A DNA stretch of 64,000 nucleotides from Alphaproteobacteria bacterium (lineage in GTDB: Bacteria > Pseudomonadota > Alphaproteobacteria > CAAHEQ01 > UBA3637), in contig JAFYRI010000009.1 of the NCBI GenBank assembly GCA_017559525.1, forward strand, positions 8,443 to 72,442, written 5' to 3'. Below are positions 3 to 37,445 of this stretch, one piece after another. The translations under genes and the position numbers were made by a program. Every line of letters starts with the position of its first letter. Positions within the stretch are counted from its first letter, which is position 1. The notes under the pieces are model-generated. The model did not search any database. It was not told the DNA's origin and saw only the letters and a list, made by a program, of their open reading frames with translations.

Positions 3-1391
3 ATGTTATATCAACCGCGTTCTGAAATTGAAATGGCGTCTTATAAAACTTTAGTTAAATCATTGGTCGGTTTTTCTGCTGAACGAGGTGATACATTAGA
101 GTTAATAAACTTACCTTTTGTAAAAATGCCTGATAATACAATTTTGGGATTTAAGCGAGGGGTTGTTATTCAGTCTGTCTTATTGATATTGTTTTTTGTT
201 TTAACCGTTTTGATTTTGATTCGTTTTATTTTGCCAATGATTTATATATTGTTGCAGCCAACGCCGATTCGGGCTGTAAATGCAGCATATGCAACATCAA
301 CAACTGAATTTGATGATGTTGCTGTAAGTGGTAAAAAGAGTGTAATACAGAATTTATTTTCCTATAAACAATCTCAAGTTGTGTCTGTGATACGTAAGTG
401 GTTATATGGAATATCACAAGAAGGGGAATTAAGTGGTGTTCAAAAAACAGCTGTTTTATTATTAGCTTTAGGCGAAGAATATATTAAGCCTATTTTCTTA
501 AAATTAAAAGATGAAGAAGTTGTTACGATTTCTCGTACCATGGCAGAATTAGGATGTGTTTCAGGAGAAAATGTTCAGGAAGTTTTTGCATCATTTTTAG
601 CGTGTTTTCATCAAACAGGGGATTTATGCGCTAGTTCGGATTATGTGGAAACATTAATGGAGAATGTATTGCCCGCTTCCGGCAAGAAAGATATTTTGGA
701 GCAGATTTATGCGCCAGTAAGTGGAAAGAATATTTGGGAAAAATTAGAGCATACAGATACAACTAAATTGGCTGAAGCACTATCTGGTGAATATCCTCAA
801 ACAATTGCAGTTGTATTGTATCATTTATCTAATGAAAAAGCTAGTGACGTGTTAGGATGTTTTTCTGAAAGTTTAACGATGGATGTATTAATGCGTTTAA
901 CGGCTTTAAAAGATGTAGATGATCAAACATTGGCTGGGGTAGAGCAAGGGTTGGATGCAAAATTAAAGGCATTGCACAATCAACCATCCTTGGGTGGCAA
1001 AGAAAAAGCTGCGGGTATTATCAGTTTGATGGATAGAAAAACAGATATTTTAAATACATTGTTTGAACGTTCTCCAGAATTGGCGGGTCAATTATCTGCT
1101 GGAGTTATTATGTTTGAAGATATTGCGGATTGGGATGATAAGTCTATTCGAACATTGTTGGAAAAAATGGATAGGCAAGTTGTGATTTATGCTTTAAAAG
1201 GAGCATCGGATAAAATGAAAGAGGCTTTTTCGCGCAATATGTCTCCAGCTGTTTGGGGTGGTGTCCTGAAAGAAATTAATAAATTATCCTCTATCAAAGT
1301 AAAGGATATTGATGCGGCTCAGCATGCTTTAGTGCGAACAGCGCAAGAATTAATAGACCAAAAGAAAATTATTATTGTAAAAGAAAGATGA
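3..1391 (+). CDS. fliF-fliG: 5' partial ORF: FliF (M-ring) C-terminal periplasmic end, TM2 and cytoplasmic tail, continuing in frame into a full-length FliG rotor/switch protein (apparent natural FliF-FliG fusion)
   Basis: The N-terminal part has the FliF-like RGDTLELINLPF motif, then a TM helix (VVIQSVLLILFFVLTVLILIRFIL) and a tail ending ...VIRKWLYGISQEG. With no stop codon it then reads ELSGVQKTAVLLLALGEEY..., a typical FliG N-terminus, through to a FliG-like C-terminal domain. The junction is near nt 423-431. There is no in-frame ATG/GTG/TTG near the junction. Confidence 0.75.
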   Translation: MLYQPRSEIEMASYKTLVKSLVGFSAERGDTLELINLPFVKMPDNTILGFKRGVVIQSVLLILFFVLTVLILIRFILPMIYILLQPTPIRAVNAAYATSTTEFDDVAVSGKKSVIQNLFSYKQSQVVSVIRKWLYGISQEGELSGVQKTAVLLLALGEEYIKPIFLKLKDEEVVTISRTMAELGCVSGENVQEVFASFLACFHQTGDLCASSDYVETLMENVLPASGKKDILEQIYAPVSGKNIWEKLEHTDTTKLAEALSGEYPQTIAVVLYHLSNEKASDVLGCFSESLTMDVLMRLTALKDVDDQTLAGVEQGLDAKLKALHNQPSLGGKEKAAGIISLMDRKTDILNTLFERSPELAGQLSAGVIMFEDIADWDDKSIRTLLEKMDRQVVIYALKGASDKMKEAFSRNMSPAVWGGVLKEINKLSSIKVKDIDAAQHALVRTAQELIDQKKIIIVKER

Positions 1392-1398
1392 GGAAGAT

Positions 1399-1740
1399 AT
1401 GAATTCACAACAAAAAGCTCAATTGCAACAAATTACACGACGAGCATTGAAAAATGTTAATGGTCATTTCGCATCTGATGCTCCTCAATCATCGCAACCT
1501 TCTGTTGGTTCTGCGCCAGATAATTTACGTGATGTACCCGTTCATGTATCAGTTGGATTGGGAAAGGCAACTTTAATGTTGGGTGATTTAATGGCAATGA
1601 AAAAGGGGGATATATTGACATTAGATAAACAAGCTGGAGACCCAGTTGATGTATATGTGAATAATCATTTGGTTGCACATGGTGAATTAACGTTAAATGG
1701 AGAACAATTTGGCGTTGTTTTGACATCTTTAGTGTCTTAG
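1399..1740 (+). CDS. fliN: Flagellar motor switch protein FliN
   Basis: 113 aa. The C-terminal SpoA/FliN domain reads VSVGLGKATLMLGDLMAMKKGDILTLDKQAGDPVDVYVNNHLVAHGELTLNGEQFGVVLTSL. The gene sits in the flagellar cluster. Confidence 0.8.
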   Translation: MNSQQKAQLQQITRRALKNVNGHFASDAPQSSQPSVGSAPDNLRDVPVHVSVGLGKATLMLGDLMAMKKGDILTLDKQAGDPVDVYVNNHLVAHGELTLNGEQFGVVLTSLVS

Positions 1741-1753
1741 TAAGGATTGTTTT

Positions 1754-2725
1754 ATGAGATTGAAAACCATATCTGCGCCAACGATACCAGAGGCGATGAA
1801 AGAGGTGCGTCAAACATGGGGTGAGGATGCGGTTATTGTTTCGTCATTGCGTTTAGCCGATGGACGAACCCAATTGGTTGTTGCTATTGGTGAAAACGAA
1901 AACGATACAATGTTATCTCAAACATTATTACAATCTTCTAAAGGTCATATACAAAATGATAATGCCGAAAAAATGCGAGCATTGTTAAGTATGCATCGTG
2001 TTCCAGATTTGTTGATTGCAAAAATGTTAAAAGCTACTGATTTATCTGGAGATTTTGCTCAAATATTAACAGATACATTACGGCATGTTTTTTCATTTTC
2101 ACCAATTGGTATTGTTAAAACAAAGCGTGCGTTTTTATTAACGGGAATGTCGGCCTGTGGCAAGACAACTTCTTTGATTAAGTGGGCGTTAATGGCAAAA
2201 CAACAGCATGTCAAAGTTGCATTGGTTTCCATAGATAATCATAAAGCCGGAGCGATTCAAGGATTGCAGTCTGTTGCAAACTTATTAAAAGTTCCATTAA
2301 CAATTGTGGAAGATTTAGAGCAGTTGAATAAAGCGGTTCAAGAAGCGCGTTCGGATAGCGATTTAATATTAATTGATTCTGCGGGTTTGAATCCGTGGAT
2401 GGCAACAGATATGTCATTTTTGGCTGAAGTGAAACAACAATGTATTGGGGTGGAGCCAATTGTTGTTATTCCGGCGGGATTAGATAGTTTGGAAACGGGT
2501 GATATTGCATCTCAATTTGTTCGATTGGGGTGTACGCGCTTTATTGCAACTCGTTTAGATATATCCAGTGTGTATGGTAATATTTTAAGTGCTGCAGCTT
2601 CGGGTTTAGCCTTGACCTATTATGGTAAAGGGGCGATGCCAACGGATTTGTTTTCCTCTTTTTCTGCGGAAACGTTATCTGATTTGTTGATGAATACTCC
2701 CTTATCTCGGGAGTTGTTGTCATGA
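1754..2725 (+). CDS. flhF: Flagellar biosynthesis SRP-type GTPase FlhF (short form)
   Basis: P-loop LTGMSACGKTTSLIKWA. The SRP-GTPase fold motifs DSAG and ATRLD are present. It is followed by the MinD-like partner gene. Confidence 0.7.
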   Translation: MRLKTISAPTIPEAMKEVRQTWGEDAVIVSSLRLADGRTQLVVAIGENENDTMLSQTLLQSSKGHIQNDNAEKMRALLSMHRVPDLLIAKMLKATDLSGDFAQILTDTLRHVFSFSPIGIVKTKRAFLLTGMSACGKTTSLIKWALMAKQQHVKVALVSIDNHKAGAIQGLQSVANLLKVPLTIVEDLEQLNKAVQEARSDSDLILIDSAGLNPWMATDMSFLAEVKQQCIGVEPIVVIPAGLDSLETGDIASQFVRLGCTRFIATRLDISSVYGNILSAAASGLALTYYGKGAMPTDLFSSFSAETLSDLLMNTPLSRELLS

Positions 2726-3513
2726 TGGATTTTGTATCGCCATTGATATTGAAAACATTGCAGCGTACGGGTGGGAAGAATATTATTGTATTGGCTTCTG
2801 GTCGAGGTACTATGGGTAAAACATGGATTTCAATTGCCATGGCTAGTATCTTGGCGAAAATGGGGCAAAAAATATTGTTATTTGATGGTGATTTGGGACT
2901 GGCAAATATCGATATTCAATTAGGGATTTTTGCTCAAGCGGATATTACGGGTATTTTGAATGGGCAAGTTCCTATGAATAAAGCGATTCGCTGTTTTGAA
3001 CCTGGCGGTTTTGATATTATTACGGGACGCTCAAAAACACACTCTTTACAAGCGTTGGATGGTTGTGGATTGCAGTTGATTAAGGATGATTTATCGTTGT
3101 TGGCGACTCATTATGATACTGTTATTGTTGATTTGGGGAGTTCATCTGAGACAATGATAAATGTGTTTTCGGAAGATGTAGGTCGTATATTGGTCGTTTG
3201 TACAGATGAATTATTGGCTTTAACTCAAGCAAGAAATCTGTTGAAAATGCTGTCTAATAAAGGAAAAAGTGATAAAATTGGTATAGTTATTAATGCTGTA
3301 TCTTCGTTAAAAGAGGGAAATCGTACTTACTACACATTAACTAAAGCGTGTGATGATTTTTTAAAAGGAAGTTTACCTTTGTTGGGTGTGATACGTCAAG
3401 ATTCGTATGTGGTTGATGCGCTGGAAAATCGATTGTCTGTTTTTAATGCGTATCCAGATTGTAAAGCGATTAGTGATGTAAAAAAGATAATTGAAAAAAT
3501 AAATGATAAATAA
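2722..3513 (+). CDS. flhG: MinD/ParA-family ATPase FlhG (FleN)
   Basis: Deviant Walker A SGRGTMGKTWISIAMASILAKMG. The DGDLGLAN motif is present. The start ATGATGG overlaps the flhF stop, and the gene sits in flagellar context. Confidence 0.7.
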   Translation: MMDFVSPLILKTLQRTGGKNIIVLASGRGTMGKTWISIAMASILAKMGQKILLFDGDLGLANIDIQLGIFAQADITGILNGQVPMNKAIRCFEPGGFDIITGRSKTHSLQALDGCGLQLIKDDLSLLATHYDTVIVDLGSSSETMINVFSEDVGRILVVCTDELLALTQARNLLKMLSNKGKSDKIGIVINAVSSLKEGNRTYYTLTKACDDFLKGSLPLLGVIRQDSYVVDALENRLSVFNAYPDCKAISDVKKIIEKINDK

Positions 3514-5193: not shown

Positions 5194-5604
5194 ATGAAAA
5201 AATTAGAATCTGGTCGTTCAATGGTTGAAATGTTGGGTGTATTGGCTATTATCGGTGTATTATCCATCGGTGGTATCGCTGGTTACACAATGGCTATGAA
5301 CCGTTACCGTGCAAACGAAGTTTTGAACGCTGCTCAAATGTTGTCCGTTGTTGCTCAATCCACAAGAGATACCGGTACAGTACCAAATTTAGAATCAATT
5401 GGCGTTGCTGGTGCTAGTGAAAATACAATTCACAATTGTACGTTAGCTGCTGAAGCAGGTAGTCCAGCTGTTTCAGCATCAGGCACAAATTGTGATTTAA
5501 CTACAATTGCTAATATCACAGGTCAAGACCATGATGATGGCACTATTATTAATGCCAACGGTCAATTGGGTGCAGCTGCAGTTGCCGGTGGCCAAGGCCA
5601 ATAA
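5194..5604 (+). CDS. Type IV pilin-like protein (prepilin with class III signal peptide)
   Basis: The N-terminus MKKLESG|RSMVEMLGVLAIIGVLSIGGIAGYTMAMNRYRANE has Gly at -1 and Glu at +5. The AIIGVLS hydrophobic helix and the Y..N.Y.A pattern match the type IVa pilin alpha1-N. Two Cys near the C-terminus (NCTLAAEAGSPAVSASGTNCD) resemble a D-region disulfide loop. Confidence 0.7.
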   Translation: MKKLESGRSMVEMLGVLAIIGVLSIGGIAGYTMAMNRYRANEVLNAAQMLSVVAQSTRDTGTVPNLESIGVAGASENTIHNCTLAAEAGSPAVSASGTNCDLTTIANITGQDHDDGTIINANGQLGAAAVAGGQGQ

Positions 5605-11072: not shown

Positions 11073-11723
11073 ATGATGACACAAAAATTCAAATCGATTA
11101 CTATTTTTTGCAGTGCTTCTGGTTCAACGGCTTCCATTTATTGTGAATATATGCGTAAGGTTGGTGAAATGTTGGCCGAACGAGGTATTACCGTTGTCTT
11201 TGGCGGTGGTGACGAAGGTATGATGGGTAAAGTATTGCAAGGTGTTTTGAATAAAAATGGTAAAAAATATGCCGTTATTACAGAACAATTATTTCCATTA
11301 GAATGTCATAACCCAAGTGTTTATACAAAGGGCGAACTTATTACCGTTGATACAATGGCAGAACGTAAGGCTAAATTAATCGAATTAGGTGATGCGATTT
11401 TGGTTGGTCCTGGTGGTTGGGGAACGGTCGATGAGGTGTCAGAATATGCTGTAGCTGTTCAAATTGGTAATGCAGCTCGTAAGCCAATGTTATTTTTAAA
11501 CTTTAATAATTTTTGGAAACCAATGATGCATATGATGTTAAATATGTTACAAGAAGGTACACTCAATAATAGCAAAGTCGATTTTATCGATTTTGTAAAC
11601 GATATTGATGGTATTTTTCCAGCTTTGGATAAAATCCAAGAACGTATTGAAGCGCGTGAAAATGGAACGCCGGTTATTGCACCGTTTTGTGCATGCGTAG
11701 AAGCTCCTAGACAAAATGACTAA
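11073..11723 (+). CDS. LOG family protein (TIGR00730; cytokinin riboside 5'-monophosphate phosphoribohydrolase-like)
   Basis: ITIFCSASGS...VVFGGG...PGGWGTVDE motifs. Confidence 0.75.
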   Translation: MMTQKFKSITIFCSASGSTASIYCEYMRKVGEMLAERGITVVFGGGDEGMMGKVLQGVLNKNGKKYAVITEQLFPLECHNPSVYTKGELITVDTMAERKAKLIELGDAILVGPGGWGTVDEVSEYAVAVQIGNAARKPMLFLNFNNFWKPMMHMMLNMLQEGTLNNSKVDFIDFVNDIDGIFPALDKIQERIEARENGTPVIAPFCACVEAPRQND

Positions 11724-11729
11724 ATCAAA

Positions 11730-13028
11730 ATGACTAAATCAAATATTTTTGCAGATCATTATAGACCTTTAAATCCCGAGGATATTGCAGCCTCTGAAAC
11801 AAATTTTAAAATTAATTTTGTTGGTTTGATTTTGGGATTATTCTTCTTGTTAATCTTCAGAAGTTTCGAAATTTCTGTTGCTTGGAAGTTTACTGGCTTA
11901 ACAGTCCTTGTTGCTGTTTCAGTTACTTTAATGGAATATTTGTGTTACGGAAAAAATAGTCCATTGGGCTTGTTGAAAGTTTATAGAAAAATTAATTTTA
12001 AACGATGCTGTTATAAAATATTAGGGTTGTTTTTTGTTTTTGGTTGCATTGCTTGTATTTATTGGTTATTTCCTCTTTTTCATGAAGGTACTTTTAAAAA
12101 GTGGATAGAATATTTAAAAATGATGTGTCCTTATTTAGGGGGTATATCTATCTGTTATATTTTTCTAATGGATATTATTTTAAAACAAGAAAAAGATGAA
12201 TATTGGCATATAGGTTATTATTTAATACATCGAAAAAATGGTCTTAGTTATGCACAATTAGCGAATTTAGCACGCAGTTGGCTTGTTAAGTTGTTTTTTT
12301 TAGGGTTAATGGTTCCATGGTCATTTGGGCATTTATCAAATATAGAAAAAGAAGATTTTTTTAGTTTTTCTTTAAGTAATCCTGTGGCGTTGTTTTTTGC
12401 CTTAGAAACAATTTGTTATGGGATTGATGTGATATATGGAGCTATTGGTTATATTGGTGGGTTGAAGGTGAATAATACTCATATTCGGAGCGCTGAGCCA
12501 ACGCTGTTTGGATGGATCGTTGCAATTATGTGTTATTGGCCATTTTGGGGGGTATTATTTTATCCACACTTTTTAGATTATCATCATACTAATAGATGGA
12601 TGGATATTTTTGATACTGGAGGTGTTGTTTGGTATGCTTGGGCCGCAATGATTGTTGTTTGTGAACTTATTTATGCAATGTCAACTGTTGCTGCAGGAAC
12701 GCGTTTTTCTAATTTAACGTATCGCGGTTTATGGCATACAGGCCCATATAGATGGACGAAACATCCTGCATATATTGCTAAGAATATATCATGGTGGTTA
12801 ATTACAATGCCTTTTATGCTTGAAACAATAGATTTAGCAATAAAATGTAGTTTATTGTTGTTTTGTGTTAATATTATTTATTATTTGCGGGCTAAAACAG
12901 AAGAACGGCACCTTTCTCACTATTCGGAATATCGTGAGTATGCATTGTTGATGAATGATAAAAGTATTTTCCGTTTTATAACACGCTTTTTCCCATTTTT
13001 AGAATATCGTATTCCAATGGATAAATAA
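11730..13028 (+). CDS. Polytopic membrane protein with a C-terminal isoprenylcysteine carboxyl methyltransferase-like (ICMT / phospholipid methyltransferase) domain
   Basis: C-terminal motif GLWHTGPYRWTKHPAYIAKNISWWL...RAKTEERHLSHYSEYREYA. Many TM helices lie upstream. Confidence 0.55.
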   Translation: MTKSNIFADHYRPLNPEDIAASETNFKINFVGLILGLFFLLIFRSFEISVAWKFTGLTVLVAVSVTLMEYLCYGKNSPLGLLKVYRKINFKRCCYKILGLFFVFGCIACIYWLFPLFHEGTFKKWIEYLKMMCPYLGGISICYIFLMDIILKQEKDEYWHIGYYLIHRKNGLSYAQLANLARSWLVKLFFLGLMVPWSFGHLSNIEKEDFFSFSLSNPVALFFALETICYGIDVIYGAIGYIGGLKVNNTHIRSAEPTLFGWIVAIMCYWPFWGVLFYPHFLDYHHTNRWMDIFDTGGVVWYAWAAMIVVCELIYAMSTVAAGTRFSNLTYRGLWHTGPYRWTKHPAYIAKNISWWLITMPFMLETIDLAIKCSLLLFCVNIIYYLRAKTEERHLSHYSEYREYALLMNDKSIFRFITRFFPFLEYRIPMDK

Positions 13029-18147: not shown

Positions 18148-18176
18148 TACAAAACACCCACCGGTGAGGGTGGGTG
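18148..18176 (-). terminator. Intrinsic terminator of the giant pilin gene
   Basis: Minus strand reads CACCCACC-CTCACC-GGTGGGTG followed by TTTTGTATT. Confidence 0.6.
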
Positions 18177-18195
18177 TGATGCCTGAGATCCTATC

Positions 18196-20712
18196 TTAGT
18201 AGCATAACATGGCGTTGCCACTTGTGGAGTAGAGTCCTGCAGCAATGCGCCTAGATAGATTGAATGACACACTATAGCTATGAAGCCCTGCTGATAGGTA
18301 GGTGCTGAAGGTAGGCGCCTTACTTCCTTCTTGCCCTCCATTTTTAGTATAGTATATTCTATATCCATCTATATATGCCTCATACGAATTAATGATGCCC
18401 TTTTCTAGAACTACTTCACTTGCGAAGAATGTGTAGGTACCACTTTGGGGAACCATAATATATCCGCTTGCTGCTACTTGGCATGGTCCTGGATGATCTA
18501 CATCACACCATGCAATAAAGCCTTTGTTTCGCCCCTCTAGACCATAGCAACCACCATTTGTGCTGTCAATTTTATATCCTTGAGATAATCCGAAGTTGCT
18601 ACATGATGATGGGATGAAGCATTTATTTTGGTACCAAGCATTTGCACAGTAAACACATTGTTTTGTGTCGGAGTTATAATAATAACCAGAACCTAATGAA
18701 GCACAAGGAACGCATTGAGAACCATTCCAATATGGTTTATCGGTTGGACATATACATTGTTTTGTTGAACTATCCCAATATGTTTTTTGGGAATTTATAC
18801 TAGCGCAAGTGACACATTGTGAACCGTTCCAATATGGTGTTGCAGATGGGCAAGTTGTACATTGTGTACCATTCCAATAAGGACGTTCAGTTGGGCATGT
18901 TTTTAAGCATTGTTTTTGTACATTATCCCAATATGGTGTTGAAGGATTTTTATCAGCACAGGTTTCGCATTTGTTGCCATTCCAATTTGTGCCAATTGGA
19001 CAAGGACCGCATTCGAAATAATCTTCAGAATCTTTTGTAATTAACTGAGGATATGGATTAGTATCGGGACATGTACTGACACATTGTTTGTTTTCTGAAT
19101 CCCAATATGGTTTATCGGTATTGTATTTTTCGGCAAAAGCTGTACATCTGAGACATGTTGTATCTTCTTTTTTAGAGAATGTTCCGGTTGGACATTCCCA
19201 ACATTCTGAACCACGACCTATGTGATTATCTGGACAATACAGACATAATTGAGAATTGTGATTCCATTTGCCGCTAGGACAACTTTCACATTTTTTAGTA
19301 AAAGGATTGTAAAGTTTTTTGTTGTTTTCATCGCACATCACACATCTGTATGGTCCACTTCCATACGCTATTTTTTTGCCTTGACATGTGACGCATGCTT
19401 TTATTGAGTTATCCCACATTTGTGCATCGGGGCATATTTGACATCGTTTTAATTGAGTGTTCCAATAGGGTCTATATCCGACACCGACATTATCTTTGAT
19501 TAGTCCTTCACATCCGACACACTCTGTTCCATCCCAATATGGTGTATCATCTGAACAAGCTACACATTGTGTTCCATTCCAAGATGGGGTTTCCTCAGGA
19601 CAAAACGTACATTGTGTTCCATCCCAGTATGGTGTTTTATCTCCAAATCGATCGGCACATGATACGCATTGCGAACCATGCCATATGGGTTTGTCTAGAG
19701 GACAGCAGGCACGGTCACTCAAAACAGGCTTGTCCGCAGGGCAATTTGTCAAACATGAAGGGTTGCCACTATTATTAATCTCAAAATATGGAGATGATGG
19801 GGGGCAAGTAACAACCAATTGATAAAGAGTTGTTTCGGGGTATAAAGTTGTTGTTGGTGTATACGTGTGTGTGCTTTCAAATATTTCTGTTGTTTCAAAT
19901 ATTTCTGTTGTTTCCCAAAGGGATGTTGTTTCGGTTAGGGTTGTTGATGAAGATATTTCTGTTGTTTCAAAAGTGGTTATAGATGTTTCAATCAACGTTG
20001 TTTTAGTATTATTGCCTACATCAGATGTAAGAATGATATCTGATGTTTCAACATTTTTTTCTTGTTCAATTTTAATGCAAATATGATCTTCGCATACTTC
20101 ATTATCTTTACAATCTTCAGCAGTGGTACATGCCTTAACGCAAATGCCATTTATTTCTTCGCCAGACCAACAAATACAGGAATTTGTGGCTTCTTCCCAG
20201 TGTCGTTCTGTTAAATCACATTCACAGGTATTGGGATCAGCTCCTTTAGGAGTGTCGGATGGGCATTCTTTTGTTGTTGGGTTTATGGTTGTTTTTTTAA
20301 ATAAAACAATTAAGTTATTGTTTTCTTCACATTCTTCCAAAAGTTGTCCATCTGTTGAATAAATTTTAACATCTAACGTGTTTTTTATATTATCTAATGC
20401 TATATCGCATATTGTTTTGGGAACATCAAATATCTGAAGTCCAATGGAAATATTGTCATAAGTAATATCGTATCCTAACTTACTTTTGGGACTGAATTTA
20501 GCTAAACTGACATTTTTTTTACGATTATCAAGTTGTTTTTCAACTTCTAAACTTCTTTGTAATATCTCATCTGATAAAATATTAGCATGATATTTATTTA
20601 TCAAATAAGTATAGATTTCTAATAAGAAAATAGATAAAACGCCGATAATTGACAGTATACCTAGCATTTCAAACATGGATTGACCATATTGCGATTTGTT
20701 TTTTATATCCAT
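18196..20712 (-). CDS. Giant modular type IV pilin-like protein (838 aa): pilin N-terminal module, Thr/Glu-rich linker, cysteine-rich repeat array, PA14-like C-terminal domain
   Basis: The N-terminus MDIKNKSQYG|QSMFEMLGILSIIGVLSIFLLEIYTYLINKYHAN is paralogous to the short pilin at 5194. The TETTEIFETTEIF linker follows. There are about 11 repeats of ...C..C...(T/S)PYW(N/D)G(T/S)QC. The C-terminus SGYIMVPQSGTYTFFASE...DGYRIYY matches the PA14/GLEYA pattern. Confidence 0.7.
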   Translation of the reverse strand: MDIKNKSQYGQSMFEMLGILSIIGVLSIFLLEIYTYLINKYHANILSDEILQRSLEVEKQLDNRKKNVSLAKFSPKSKLGYDITYDNISIGLQIFDVPKTICDIALDNIKNTLDVKIYSTDGQLLEECEENNNLIVLFKKTTINPTTKECPSDTPKGADPNTCECDLTERHWEEATNSCICWSGEEINGICVKACTTAEDCKDNEVCEDHICIKIEQEKNVETSDIILTSDVGNNTKTTLIETSITTFETTEISSSTTLTETTSLWETTEIFETTEIFESTHTYTPTTTLYPETTLYQLVVTCPPSSPYFEINNSGNPSCLTNCPADKPVLSDRACCPLDKPIWHGSQCVSCADRFGDKTPYWDGTQCTFCPEETPSWNGTQCVACSDDTPYWDGTECVGCEGLIKDNVGVGYRPYWNTQLKRCQICPDAQMWDNSIKACVTCQGKKIAYGSGPYRCVMCDENNKKLYNPFTKKCESCPSGKWNHNSQLCLYCPDNHIGRGSECWECPTGTFSKKEDTTCLRCTAFAEKYNTDKPYWDSENKQCVSTCPDTNPYPQLITKDSEDYFECGPCPIGTNWNGNKCETCADKNPSTPYWDNVQKQCLKTCPTERPYWNGTQCTTCPSATPYWNGSQCVTCASINSQKTYWDSSTKQCICPTDKPYWNGSQCVPCASLGSGYYYNSDTKQCVYCANAWYQNKCFIPSSCSNFGLSQGYKIDSTNGGCYGLEGRNKGFIAWCDVDHPGPCQVAASGYIMVPQSGTYTFFASEVVLEKGIINSYEAYIDGYRIYYTKNGGQEGSKAPTFSTYLSAGLHSYSVSFNLSRRIAAGLYSTSGNAMLCY
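19876..20000 (-). repeat. 18-bp tandem repeat (about 7 units, two identical) encoding the (E-T-T-E-I-F)n mucin-like linker of the giant pilin
   Basis: TTTCAAATATTTCTGTTG occurs twice in tandem at 19876-19911, followed by degenerate 18-bp units. Confidence 0.7.
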
Positions 20713-20755
20713 TTTAAGGCTCCTATTTTCTTATTGATTTTATGATAAGTATACT

Positions 20756-30685: not shown

Positions 30686-31117
30686 ATGAAAAAAATTATT
30701 TTATTGATACTTATTGGTGTGCTGAGTGGATGTCAAAGTATATCCGCAAAAGAAGAAAAGTTTAAAAATCCGTTATTTTATAAAAAGATGGAAAATTTAT
30801 CCTCTAACTATTTTTGGGATATGAAACTGACACCCACCACAATGACGTCATATTTACGGCATACAGATACGGTTTGGGTTCAAAAATGCGACCTTATCAA
30901 AAATGAAGAAACATATGTTATTATGTCTTGTGAAGATGTACTGGATTCCACATATCGACACCGTACAAAATGTATTATAGATAATGATCCGTTTGAAGGA
31001 CACGTTAAATGTTATGGTTCCGAAGACAAATATGACGATCCCGAAAAACATTGGAATTCTATAGACAATTATACTACCAACGATCCCAATTACACTATCA
31101 ATAATCCCAATCGATGA
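30686..31117 (+). CDS. Hypothetical lipoprotein
   Basis: MKKIILLILIGVLSGCQS lipobox. The ORF-track start at 30650 is a TTG inside the promoter. Confidence 0.5.
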   Translation: MKKIILLILIGVLSGCQSISAKEEKFKNPLFYKKMENLSSNYFWDMKLTPTTMTSYLRHTDTVWVQKCDLIKNEETYVIMSCEDVLDSTYRHRTKCIIDNDPFEGHVKCYGSEDKYDDPEKHWNSIDNYTTNDPNYTINNPNR

Positions 31118-31853
31118 TTTGTAATATTTTTTGAATCATATCTTGATTGCGATCTTGTGACACATCTTTTCTATGACTTTCTTCCGCCACAGACCGGATA
31201 TTTTTATCTTGAATAGCTTGTATCATTTTGGGAAATTTTTCAATGTGACCAGTATTGTATTGAATATCTATAACGGCATCTTGCACACCGGTCGGTAACT
31301 TATCAAAGTTTGGAACAGCTCGGCGAATTTGCGCTAAATCACTTTTTAAATGGTCCACCATTTGTTTATTAATTTGTGCATCAGACAAACGCGAAACGGT
31401 ATATTTTTCATAGAAATTCGCTTGATAATTTCTTGAAGGTGTATTTTTGATAGAGGTATAATCCGCCTTAATTTCGTCAGGTGTCGCCTTTTGACCGGTA
31501 TTTTTATTCACCCAATCTAACGAGGCATATTTATCAAAATTATCCACATTTAATCCTCCACCGACGGTGATAATACCCTTTGTGTCTTTATAGGGAAAAT
31601 CTTTAACCCCTTCGTGTTTTTTAATTTCGGGTATATTGCGTTTGATTAATTCATCGTCCAAAACAAGAGGATCGGACACAGATGATTTTGATACGACAGA
31701 TTCTTTAAAATTATTGTTTTCATCTAATTTATCGGCATTATTTTGAAACCACACATCAATAAAGTCATTGGCTTGTTTATGGGCAGGATGTTTTTTATCT
31801 TGATACATTTTAGAATTCATAAAATTTGTTATTTGGTGATATGGAATGGGCAT
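31098..31853 (-). CDS. T4-lysozyme-like (GH24 family) muramidase-domain protein with an ~85-aa N-terminal extension; no signal peptide
   Basis: KHEGVKDFPYKDTKGIITVGGG aligns with T4L [23 protein letters not shown], with identical Glu/Asp/Thr catalytic spacing (E, +9 D, +6 T). The downstream helical lobe is conserved. The start was set at the ATG with AAGGAGA SD (MPIPYHQ...). Confidence 0.6.
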   Translation of the reverse strand: MPIPYHQITNFMNSKMYQDKKHPAHKQANDFIDVWFQNNADKLDENNNFKESVVSKSSVSDPLVLDDELIKRNIPEIKKHEGVKDFPYKDTKGIITVGGGLNVDNFDKYASLDWVNKNTGQKATPDEIKADYTSIKNTPSRNYQANFYEKYTVSRLSDAQINKQMVDHLKSDLAQIRRAVPNFDKLPTGVQDAVIDIQYNTGHIEKFPKMIQAIQDKNIRSVAEESHRKDVSQDRNQDMIQKILQIIDWDY

Positions 31854-31865
31854 ATTGTTCTCCTT

Positions 31866-31933
31866 AAAAATAAAAAATACCGTTTGAGTTTTCCCCAAAC
31901 GGTCATAAAAAATCGGGATATATTTCACCCGAT
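31866..31933 (-). terminator. Two consecutive intrinsic terminators on the minus strand between the DUF3126 operon and the lysozyme-like gene
   Basis: Minus strand reads ATCGGGTGAAATATATCCCGAT-TTTTTT, then CCGTTTGGGGAAAACTCAAACGG-TATTTTTTATTTTT. The second hairpin ends 11 nt before the SD of the lysozyme-like gene. Confidence 0.55.
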
Positions 31934-35561: not shown

Positions 35562-36485
35562 ATGGGAAAATTTTCAGAACAGTTTTTATATGAAGTTTCT
35601 AAATATGCATTAAGTCATGATAAGTTGGACTGTATGCAAGGTGAATTGTCTTCTCAGCTTTTTCAAAAAAAAATATATCAATTGCAACAAAATGTACATC
35701 TATCGGCAGAGTTGACTTCAATTTTTTTTGAATGTGGATATAGTAGAATGCCTCAAAAAGAGAGTAAGGTTGATTTAGAAAAAGAACGCTTAAAACGGTT
35801 GAAAGAGGGATTAATATTAATGTCCCATGTTCCAGCAGGTAGAGAATTATTGTCTCATATGCCACTAGATATATACATGTATGCAATGATACAAGAGGAT
35901 AGGGGTTTTTTTTCATCTTCGGATAAAATGTTATCGGTTTCATCACGTCATCCAACATTATGGGTTGGGAAAAAATTATATATTAAAACTCTGGCTCATG
36001 AAATGGCACATGCACGACATAATCAAGCATTTTCATGTTGTGAATATGGATTTTCGCCTAAAGCGTTTTTTATTGAGGCGGTTTTTGATGAATTAGGTGC
36101 TAGATTAACCGGTGAAAAGATATATCATGAACTATGCAAAAGTGGAAAAATAAATGGTGAAGAAAATCACAAACCATTGTCAATATCAAGACTGGTAGAT
36201 ATTATGGAAAAAAATGGTTATTTTTCATATTTTGCACAAGAAATTTCGGATAAGATAGGTCGCGATATGAATATGATACTGGATGAGGATGATACTCTGA
36301 ACCAACCATTAGGTGAGATGTTTTCATACTATATGAAATTGTATCCTCAGTTGCGACAAAAAAATGTATTAGATAAAATTGATGCACAATATCGTAAATT
36401 AATTTTGTATCCTGCAGGACGATTGGTTGGATTGAGTCAATCACAAGTTAATCGCCGCTTTAAAGATTTTGGATACGGAAAATAA
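35562..36485 (+). CDS. HExxH-motif paralog 1 (putative gluzincin-like metallopeptidase / effector candidate)
   Basis: HEMAH, then 29 aa on DELGA. Shares the N-terminal SE(Q/K)FL(Y/Q)xVS and C-terminal YYMKLYPQL motifs with the three downstream paralogs. Confidence 0.55.
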   Translation: MGKFSEQFLYEVSKYALSHDKLDCMQGELSSQLFQKKIYQLQQNVHLSAELTSIFFECGYSRMPQKESKVDLEKERLKRLKEGLILMSHVPAGRELLSHMPLDIYMYAMIQEDRGFFSSSDKMLSVSSRHPTLWVGKKLYIKTLAHEMAHARHNQAFSCCEYGFSPKAFFIEAVFDELGARLTGEKIYHELCKSGKINGEENHKPLSISRLVDIMEKNGYFSYFAQEISDKIGRDMNMILDEDDTLNQPLGEMFSYYMKLYPQLRQKNVLDKIDAQYRKLILYPAGRLVGLSQSQVNRRFKDFGYGK

Positions 36486-36569
36486 AACTTGACTTTTTTG
36501 CAACAATATGATAAAATGTTTGACAAAATATTGTTTTGACGAATATACGAAGGGATATATTGTTTTTTT

Positions 36570-37439
36570 ATGTCAAATTGGTCAGAAAAATTTTTACAAA
36601 GTGTTTCGCACCCTGCTATTATTGAAATAGCAGAAACATTGCAACCAACTTGTGAAAATTTTGATGCCAAACTGAATAGATTAAAGGCTAATGTTGTTTT
36701 ATCGACAGTAATTGATCGTGATGATTTTAGAGAAATATCATGGGATTATATGATTGATAAAGCAACAGAGTGTAAGTTTTTAAAAAAAATAAAACAATCT
36801 TTTGATGTAATTGCTTCAACGCAAATGGGGAAGGATATTTTATCAGGGGTGCATAGCTCTACTTATTTTGGTGTTGCTCCTATGGAACAGCAAGGATTGT
36901 TTTTTGATCGTTCTTTTCCAACGATTTTTTTAAATGCTTCGGAGGATATATTTAATAATAATACATTGGTTTTGAAAATATTAATTCATGAATGTACGCA
37001 TGCAAAAAACGTAATAATTGGTCAACGATCTAATGCGTGTATTTTGCCTCCTAAATTAATGTTTATGCAATATATGTTAAATGAATTATCTGCTTATTTA
37101 AGCGAATATATTATGATTGCCCAACGCAAAGATAAAACATTTATGGCCTCTTCTCAAACACAGTCACAAGTTTTTGATTGTTTAGATCGTTTGTGTGATG
37201 GTGATTATATAAAAGATTTTTCTGGACGTGTTATTCGTTGGAGTCGAGGAGAAATTTTGAAAACGGACCGTAAAAAAATTGCGGCAAAGGATTTACCAAT
37301 TTTTGCATACTATTTTAAAAAATATCCAGCGTTGTGTGATTTGGCTGTTATTAGTAAACTAAATCAACTGTATCATCATCATGTTGTTAGAAAAGTGCAT
37401 GGACAAAAAATGATGCTAACAAATCAAAAAATAAGGTAG
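36570..37439 (+). CDS. HExxH-motif paralog 2
   Basis: HECTH...NELSAY. C-terminal AYYFKKYPAL. Confidence 0.55.
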   Translation: MSNWSEKFLQSVSHPAIIEIAETLQPTCENFDAKLNRLKANVVLSTVIDRDDFREISWDYMIDKATECKFLKKIKQSFDVIASTQMGKDILSGVHSSTYFGVAPMEQQGLFFDRSFPTIFLNASEDIFNNNTLVLKILIHECTHAKNVIIGQRSNACILPPKLMFMQYMLNELSAYLSEYIMIAQRKDKTFMASSQTQSQVFDCLDRLCDGDYIKDFSGRVIRWSRGEILKTDRKKIAAKDLPIFAYYFKKYPALCDLAVISKLNQLYHHHVVRKVHGQKMMLTNQKIR

Positions 37440-37445
37440 TATTTC

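Follow-up and report, generated by a model that had tools for sequence, protein, structure and literature searches.

The 64-kb stretch of alphaproteobacterial DNA analyzed here in its entirety (hereafter, the window; GC content 36%) encodes, at positions 18196..20712 of the minus strand, an 838-amino acid (aa) modular pilin-like protein. The open reading frame (ORF) starts with an ATG and ends with a stop codon at 18196-18198. A ribosome-binding site, AGGAG, can be read directly from the sequence 7 nucleotides (nt) upstream of the start codon (20720..20724, minus), and an intrinsic-terminator-like element that consists of a 9-bp G+C-rich hairpin and a T run follows approximately 19 nt past the stop codon (18154..18177, minus). 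Exactly the same protein is called on 8 independently assembled metagenome contigs from several samples. Given this recurrence and the presence of a dedicated ribosome-binding site and terminator, the ORF is a real, intact gene that is probably monocistronic. The gene is flanked by housekeeping genes, with secA at one end and dciA, tgt, lepB, rnc, era and recO at the opposite end. The source habitat is the ruminant gut, and a scan of the GTDB species genomes detected one relative, the sheep-rectum metagenome-assembled genome (MAG) RGIG6380, in agreement with the initial annotation of this DNA, which was made without database searches and suggested a host-associated alphaproteobacterium. Judging from the sequence relationships described below, the 838-aa protein is fairly likely to serve this uncultured bacterium as a modular minor pilin in a type IVb-like pilus.

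The protein is modular, as proposed in the initial annotation, and combines a pilin-type module with a Thr-rich linker, Cys-rich repeats and a PA14 domain, all encoded on the minus strand. The first 10 residues (MDIKNKSQYG; 20683..20712) form a predicted leader peptide that ends with Gly at position -1, the cleavage site being deduced from the sequence and the register of the family hidden Markov model (HMM). Residues 11-45 (QSMFEMLGILSIIGVLSI...NKYHAN; 20578..20682), which include Glu at +5 and the hydrophobic alpha1-N helix, match the small-pilin HMM in register (E=1.1e-12) and belong to a helix that is predicted to encompass residues 4-63. The putative pilin head (residues 46-145; 20278..20577) is predicted to contain the end of alpha1, four strands and one helix, with only a tentative fold assignment; it is Cys-poor, with Cys102 and Cys128 as its sole cysteines, both of which are conserved without exception in the three aligned family members. 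A conserved region with 10 cysteines (residues 146-215; 20068..20277), delineated by alignment of the homologs, ends the conserved N-terminal module. The Thr/Glu/Ser-rich linker (residues 216-300; 19813..20067) is apparent from its composition and differs in length among the homologs. It is followed by a predicted disulfide-rich stalk (residues 301-696; 18625..19812), defined by sequence composition and consisting of about 20 short CxxC...P-Y-W-(N/D)-G-x-Q-C units with 45 cysteines, and by an all-beta domain predicted to adopt a divergent PA14-fold beta-sandwich (residues 697-838; 18199..18624) on the basis of profile search, AF2 modeling and Foldseek. With the whole protein as the query, the NCBIfam and PDB sequence searches yielded no match, and the Pfam scan yielded sub-threshold matches only.

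The N-terminus links the 838-aa protein to a large family of small pilins. An HMM of the N-terminal region, built from 41 small pilins found elsewhere with the window sequences excluded, was run on the 572 six-frame ORFs of the window and matched two of these, a small pilin (E=1e-34) and the 838-aa protein, with the latter aligned in register over the signal and the helix. In this register, MDIKNKSQYG is followed by Gln, and Gly10, which is invariant in all three aligned members of the 838-aa protein family, is aligned with the corresponding Gly of the small-pilin family. Downstream of the predicted cleavage site, the sequence reads Q-S-M-F-E15 and continues with MLGILSIIGVLSIFLL, so that both the Glu at +5 and the hydrophobic stretch of alpha1-N are present. 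The leader, with 10 residues in the 838-aa protein and 7-13 residues in its relatives, is shorter than those of type IVb pilins, which are long (15-30 residues). The Gly at -1, the Glu at +5 and the in-register alignment indicate that the signal is pilin-type (class III) and not Sec, in accord with the class III signal and pilin helix originally noticed at this N-terminus.

The small pilin detected by the same HMM is a 136-aa protein (MBR5130310.1, locus IKV03_03710; 5194..5604, plus) that carries the family N-terminus GRSMVEMLGVLAIIGVLS. Its gene stands alone between rpsD and a glycosyltransferase gene. The small-pilin family includes 5,697 proteins. Across 42 diverged family members, the first 42 residues (ESGRSMVEMLGVLAIIGVLSIGGIAGYTMAMNRYRANE) hardly vary, and the remainder of the sequence diverges; a conserved N-terminus combined with a divergent remainder is the usual pattern among pilins. 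The weak matches of the family profile to known families and structures are to pilins only and show the canonical register (Dichelobacter nodosus FimA, 3sok; geopilin; PpdD; TIGR02532). The 136-aa protein is a likely candidate for the major subunit of the same filament. On long contigs, the neighborhoods of the small pilin genes contain housekeeping genes only. In some related metagenome contigs (denoted by L numbers), small-pilin paralogs form tandem or inverted sets, with four copies in L011 (10001-13148) and three copies in L029 (2472-4680); these clusters may reflect pilin variation.

The connection between this N-terminus and a particular type of pilus comes from metagenome contigs that were scanned with the small-pilin alignment. 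Four human-gut contigs (L071, L073, L079 and L090) contain an operon that encodes TcpQ, a secretin, PilO, an unknown protein, a T2SSE ATPase, a T2SSF platform protein, two PilS/bundlin-type pilins and a second ATPase. A pilin of 188-218 aa inside this operon carries the same N-terminus, SGRSMVEMLGVLAIIGVLS, and the 218-aa pilin of L071 passes the Pfam thresholds for both PilS (3e-16; 60 bits against a cutoff of 22) and Bundlin (4e-13). In L029, the three tandem small pilin genes are adjoined by a Peptidase_A24 gene (3.7e-18), and in L033, a platform gene lies just upstream of a pilin gene whose product has an N-terminus 92% identical to that of the small pilin of the window. At E<=1e-10, 795 relatives of the platform protein were detected, and the named ones come from Alphaproteobacteria MAGs, with the exception of one labeled Lactobacillales. 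The core operon (a protein of ~350-380 aa, TcpQ, secretin, PilO, a protein of ~330-360 aa, ATPase and platform protein, in this order) is chromosomal, located among housekeeping genes, and is found in at least 5 lineages, some of which have a GC content of 35-37%, like the window. Because the same N-terminus is present on pilins encoded in these TcpQ-secretin-PilO-ATPase-platform operons and next to an A24 peptidase, the N-terminal motif is predicted to tag, within this clade, the substrates of a pilus system that is type IVb-like. The type IV pilin N-terminus recognized in the initial annotation therefore stands, and the PilS/bundlin operons of related contigs refine the pilin type to type IVb-like.

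Two additional features of these operons were observed. In several lineages, a gene for a 116-135-aa protein with a match to Pfam TrbC (VirB2 pilin family) lies divergently and directly upstream of the type IVb operon (L097, 1100-1498; L107, 972-1337; L109, 1138-1488). The ATPase encoded in the operon has a long acidic N-terminal extension in several lineages, with a total length of 686-821 aa compared to 560 aa in L071.

The C-terminal profile search also identified, in gut metagenomes, two paralogs in which the pilin module is replaced by a classical Sec signal with an AxA-type cleavage site, P0289 (702 aa) and P0275 (610 aa). The PxWN...C repeats as well as the PA14-like domain are common to these proteins and the 838-aa protein (31% identity in 365 aligned columns, E=5e-37); the paralogs also carry extra GCC2/GCC3-like repeats C-terminal to the PA14 domain. 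P0289 is encoded on a 96-kb contig (L093, 8001-10109; GC content 36.3%) from sample ERZ27256907, the same sample that yielded one of the window contigs; its gene neighborhood is that of an ordinary Gram-negative bacterium, and the nearby gene at 11294-12094 encodes a 266-aa modular pilin with a Cys-rich tail. A eukaryotic origin of the Sec-signal paralogs was considered and rejected on account of their ordinary Gram-negative gene neighborhoods. Thus, the adhesive cassette that consists of the stalk and the PA14 domain is found on two carriers, pilin and Sec. The presence of the same cassette behind a classical Sec signal argues that the pilin N-terminus of the 838-aa protein is a distinct, grafted (swapped-in) module rather than a variant Sec signal. 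The paired versions of one adhesive cassette provide a clean natural example of module grafting.

The region that separates the N-terminal module from the C-terminal domain consists of two distinct parts, the linker and the stalk. The linker contains 27 Thr, 13 Glu and 8 Ser among its 85 residues and includes a perfect 18-nt tandem repeat (ETTEIF encoded twice). In the stalk, the cysteines are distributed over some 19-22 CxxC-delimited units, 11 of which bear the motif P-x-W-(N/D/H)...C (one of them with P-x-L-S), with the sequence P-Y-W-(N/D)-G-x-Q-C or a close variant; the figure of about 11 repeats given in the initial annotation is that of the motif-bearing units. This array probably forms a rigid stalk. 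The match of the stalk to Pfam TNFR_ELAPOR1_6th (PF23091) is below the threshold (23.2 bits against a cutoff of 33.2), and neither this threshold nor that of PF07699, which covers the ephrin-receptor-like repeats, is reached by the 838-aa protein, so that the apparent similarity to TNFR/ELAPOR-type Cys-rich repeats is a resemblance only.

The C-terminal domain was suspected from the start to be PA14-like, and the profile and structure comparisons bear this out. The Pfam PA14 model (PF07691, cutoff 24) scores 13.4 bits against the whole protein and 16.6 bits against the isolated domain, and the sub-threshold matches to PA14 and GLEYA span only about 20 residues. A profile made from the three homologous C-terminal domains was searched against 1.84 billion representative proteins and produced 152 matches at E<=1e-3. 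The best matches outside the family (1e-21 to 1e-15) are to proteins with 4-10 PA14 domains, in which the number of matched stretches agrees with the number of PA14 domains detected by Pfam. The AF2 model of the domain is moderately confident (pLDDT 72, pTM 0.70), and the Foldseek search initiated with this model retrieved CBM35/CBM6 and PA14 modules at about 1e-4. Both lines of comparison indicate that residues 697-838 are a divergent PA14 domain.

Close relatives of the entire protein are rare. A search of 5.8 billion proteins for whole-protein homologs found two only. In the homologs P0001 (790 aa), P0002 (520 aa) and L008 (798 aa), residues 1-214, which make up the N-terminal module, are preserved, and the length of the linker and the number of repeats vary; the N-terminal modules of P0001 and P0002 are 61-65% identical to that of the 838-aa protein. 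The small number of close homologs, three altogether, and the odd number of cysteines in the 838-aa protein (63) might be taken to indicate a decaying or chimeric gene, that is, an assembly artifact or a pseudogene that joins the 5' end of a pilin gene to an adhesin and yields no functional product. However, the ORF is intact and equipped with a ribosome-binding site and a terminator, the identical protein was assembled independently on 8 contigs, and the same fusion is kept in three diverged relatives with an overall identity of 42-62%. Considering this conservation in diverged relatives, we reject a pseudogene or an assembly chimera as highly improbable.

Several observations weigh against the assignment of the 838-aa protein to a type IVb-like pilus. 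The curated pilin-signal models, Pfam PF07963 (N_methyl) and TIGR02532, do not match it, and the small pilin of the window itself falls below the respective cutoffs (14.7 bits vs. 21.2 and 10.9 bits vs. 16.3). Pilins do not usually have the residue found here at +1, Gln in the 838-aa protein and Arg elsewhere in the family; the typical Phe, or Met/Leu/Val in type IVb pilins, is not present in the 838-aa protein. The Arg or Gln at +1, together with Ser at +2, is the likely reason why the curated models miss this family. Structure prediction, initially proposed as a check on the N-terminus, did return a helix of about 60 residues (4-63) followed by four strands and one helix, but at low confidence (pLDDT 50), and the Foldseek search with this model gave nothing significant, with TcpA, CofA and PilS among the top 50 matches and TcpA as the best pilin (E=0.27, probability 0.80). 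Because of the low confidence and the non-significant matches, we do not use this model as evidence of a pilin fold. An HMM derived from 14 other modular-pilin heads does not detect the head of the 838-aa protein, the Pfam head domains PilS (PF08805) and Bundlin (PF05307) have no match in it, and a phmmer search of a small database with residues 46-145 identified only one weak match beyond the family (L022, E=0.003). A pilin fold of residues 46-145 is plausible as a modeling result; the similarity to other pilin heads is a pattern perceived by eye, and homology is not claimed. Genes for the pilus machinery, the prepilin peptidase included, are lacking in the 64-kb window, as had been pointed out in the initial annotation. 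The machinery is also not linked to the genome of the window by the GenBank accessions of the platform proteins, none of which is near MBR5130310, or by the sample names of three platform-protein clusters, none of which matches the samples of the window. A literature search on pili in RF32-type gut Alphaproteobacteria found nothing. Finally, the DD (DcisD) motif that follows the G-x-Y-T-F strand is replaced by S-E in the 838-aa protein, compared to DDD in P0002 and SDDGS in canonical PA14 domains. Because this motif of sugar-binding PA14 lectins is missing, the glycan-binding function proposed in the initial annotation is suggested by the PA14 fold and not by conserved site residues.

Some of the same observations would be expected if the N-terminus were an ordinary Sec signal or signal-anchor, and the protein a conventional secreted or membrane-anchored Cys-rich adhesin without any link to a type IV filament. 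The curated models that fail to match, the window devoid of pilus machinery and the homologous cassettes behind plain Sec signals in P0289 and P0275 all fit such a protein. Nevertheless, this explanation appears very unlikely. It would have to account for the in-register alignment with the pilin family, with both Gly at -1 and Glu at +5, and for the charged Glu in the middle of the hydrophobic core, which is atypical of a Sec signal. Moreover, the same N-terminus is found on Pfam-positive PilS/bundlin pilins encoded in type IVb operons and adjacent to an A24 peptidase gene, whereas the N-termini of the Sec-signal paralogs, with the AxA-type cleavage site, are clearly different.

A more subtle question is whether processing of a class III signal leads to a long pilus in this case. 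The signal could be cleaved and the protein then remain anchored in the inner membrane or in a short pseudopilus or bindosome-like structure, or act mainly as an initiator of assembly or a trigger of retraction, with the signal functioning as a general display or sorting tag for many lectin-type proteins of the clade. The identical N-terminus of many proteins of this clade with varied C-terminal modules, the scattering of pilin genes without operon linkage in the low-GC lineages, and the roles of TcpB and CofB in assembly and retraction beyond adhesion (PMC5207764) are compatible with this possibility. In contrast, the operons encode a secretin and TcpQ, the type of outer-membrane conduit that surface pili usually possess; a PA14 head on a long stalk is easiest to understand as an extracellular structure; and Glu5 is kept, consistent with docking into a filament. 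On balance, we view a cleaved signal without a long pilus as unlikely, and surface display on a type IVb-like pilus as the preferred interpretation.

Under the type IVb-like pilus model, the precursor would enter the inner membrane via the hydrophobic N-terminal helix, and an A24 prepilin peptidase would remove the 10-residue leader after Gly10. The mature helix with Glu5 could then dock into a filament made mainly of small pilins, such as the one encoded at 5194-5604, and assembled by a TcpQ/secretin/PilO/ATPase/platform machine that would be encoded elsewhere in the genome. Because the approximately 700 residues of extra modules are too bulky for the filament shaft, the 838-aa protein would be expected at the pilus tip, similarly to CofB and TcpB, or protruding from the filament on the flexible Thr-rich linker. 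The linker and the disulfide-rich stalk of about 20 repeats would hold the PA14 beta-sandwich off the filament, where its binding partner might be located on host mucus, on feed particles or on other cells. In its mode of action, such a protein would parallel CofB and TcpB as well as PilB and PilC of Streptococcus sanguinis (PMC5207764; PMC8179133). This scheme suggests that poorly known gut alphaproteobacteria could attach to such surfaces by means of a type IVb pilus that bears, at its tip, lectin-type heads on long stalks.

The related contigs contain many proteins that combine the family N-terminus with other heads. Modular pilins of 341-444 aa encoded in L022, L032, L059 and L075 have C-terminal regions that, judged by eye, are C-type-lectin-like (motif WWSA..WC...G..L), and a protein encoded in L056 combines the family N-terminus with repeats similar to those of the 838-aa protein. 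Two large proteins are encoded beside the type IVb operon (L092, 141-1337; L091, 12791-14197): one is a Cys-rich protein of 1,041 aa, and the other joins a stretch that resembles a pilin head to Cys repeats of the ephrin-receptor-like kind and to a Hint-like domain (CFTGDTLIQLANGT...). It is tempting, although decidedly speculative, to propose that this clade employs one conserved chromosomal type IVb pilus as a platform for the display of a large, interchangeable set of modular lectin-type pilins, which would share the almost invariant N-terminus of approximately 40 residues that is missed by the current models. The heads identified so far would be PA14, C-type-lectin-like and Hint-containing, the cassettes would be shuffled between the pilin and Sec-secreted forms, and the 838-aa protein would be the largest displayed adhesin found so far.

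Several other genes in the window are of interest irrespective of the pilin. Flagellar genes are located at its beginning (3-3513, plus), where an ORF with a match to the M-ring C-terminal domain and complete FliG domains is followed by FlhF-like and FlhG/MinD-like genes; accordingly, the source organism probably has motility in addition to pili. Four tandem paralogous ORFs (307, 289, 299 and 298 aa; 35562-39241, plus) without Pfam matches lie upstream of bamD, recN and ligA. Each of the four contains an HExxH motif, so they may represent an uncharacterized metalloprotease-like family. A 276-aa protein with a C-terminal phage-lysozyme/pesticin-like domain is encoded near a PFOR gene (31098-31928, minus). 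At the other end of the window (60577-63906, plus), a 374-aa ORF without a Pfam match precedes a gene for a VirD4-type coupling protein of type IV secretion. This pair is kept in L030 (37% and 60% identity, respectively), where the region downstream of the VirD4 homolog contains a small pilin gene and phage-tail-like genes, with no pilus machinery found.

Modular pilins are defined as proteins that contain a pilin module and, in addition, one or more domains that are not restricted to type IV pilus biology, and more than 1,200 of these, in 264 architectures, have been published (Raynaud et al., 2021; PMC8179133). Among them, PilB and PilC of Streptococcus sanguinis carry a vWA module and a lectin module, respectively, PA14 was named among the predicted carbohydrate-binding modules when the 15 commonest architectures were examined, and one very long example has 860 aa with 12 repeats (PMC8179133). 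The argument in the initial annotation that modular pilins are known from only a few systems and that the combination of a pilin with PA14 had not been described therefore fails. By this definition, the 838-aa protein, with a PA14-fold domain and a Cys-rich stalk after the pilin-type module, is a modular pilin, and the resemblance to the catalogued proteins includes an N-terminal pilin module with functional modules grafted via a linker. The differences are that the catalogue was built on IPR012902, whereas the 838-aa protein has no match to the equivalent models PF07963 and TIGR02532; that its type is IVb-like and its source a diderm organism, an alphaproteobacterium; and that, along with PA14, it unites a Cys-knot region, a Thr-rich linker and about 20 Cys-rich units. 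A family of thousands of pilins, together with its modular members, thus escapes the standard pilin signatures, probably because of the Arg or Gln at +1, and surveys based on IPR012902 therefore undercount modular pilins.

The closest functional parallels might be CofB and LngB of enterotoxigenic Escherichia coli and TcpB of Vibrio cholerae, large type IVb minor pilins that have been proposed to reside at the pilus tip (PMC5207764; PMC8179133). Like these, the 838-aa protein would have a pilin domain with Glu5, flexible linkers, disulfide-stabilized beta domains and a C-terminal beta-sandwich. In contrast to these proteins, with which no sequence homology was detected beyond the N-terminal helix, it is encoded outside any pilus operon; its stalk greatly exceeds theirs in length, and PA14 takes the place of the CofB beta-sandwich as the head. 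The operons of the related contigs resemble the R64/Salmonella Typhi thin pilus system (PilL-V) in the presence of PilO (PF06864), PilS-type pilins (PF08805), a lipoprotein secretin, an ATPase and a platform protein. In the thin-pilus system, PilS is the major pilin, and PilV is a minor pilin adhesin whose variable C-terminus sets the binding specificity. Unlike that system, the operons in the related contigs are chromosomal and include TcpQ, and no shufflon is seen; here, the diversity seems to arise from many separate modular pilin genes.

As regards the head, PA14 adhesins, such as yeast Flo/Epa/Cea1, Marinomonas MpIBP and other RTX proteins, bind sugar via Ca2+ coordinated on the DD (DcisD) motif that is missing in the 838-aa protein. 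Flo/Epa/Cea1 and MpIBP are anchored by glycosylphosphatidylinositol/cell wall attachment or via type I secretion, whereas the 838-aa protein would be anchored by a pilin helix. Modular pilins, PA14 fusions among them, form an established class, the concept of which is unchanged by the 838-aa protein, and this protein does not represent a new kind of system. What is new compared to the known systems is the specific architecture, the type IVb and alphaproteobacterial context, the variant of the signal that is missed by the standard models and the apparent breadth of the repertoire in this clade.

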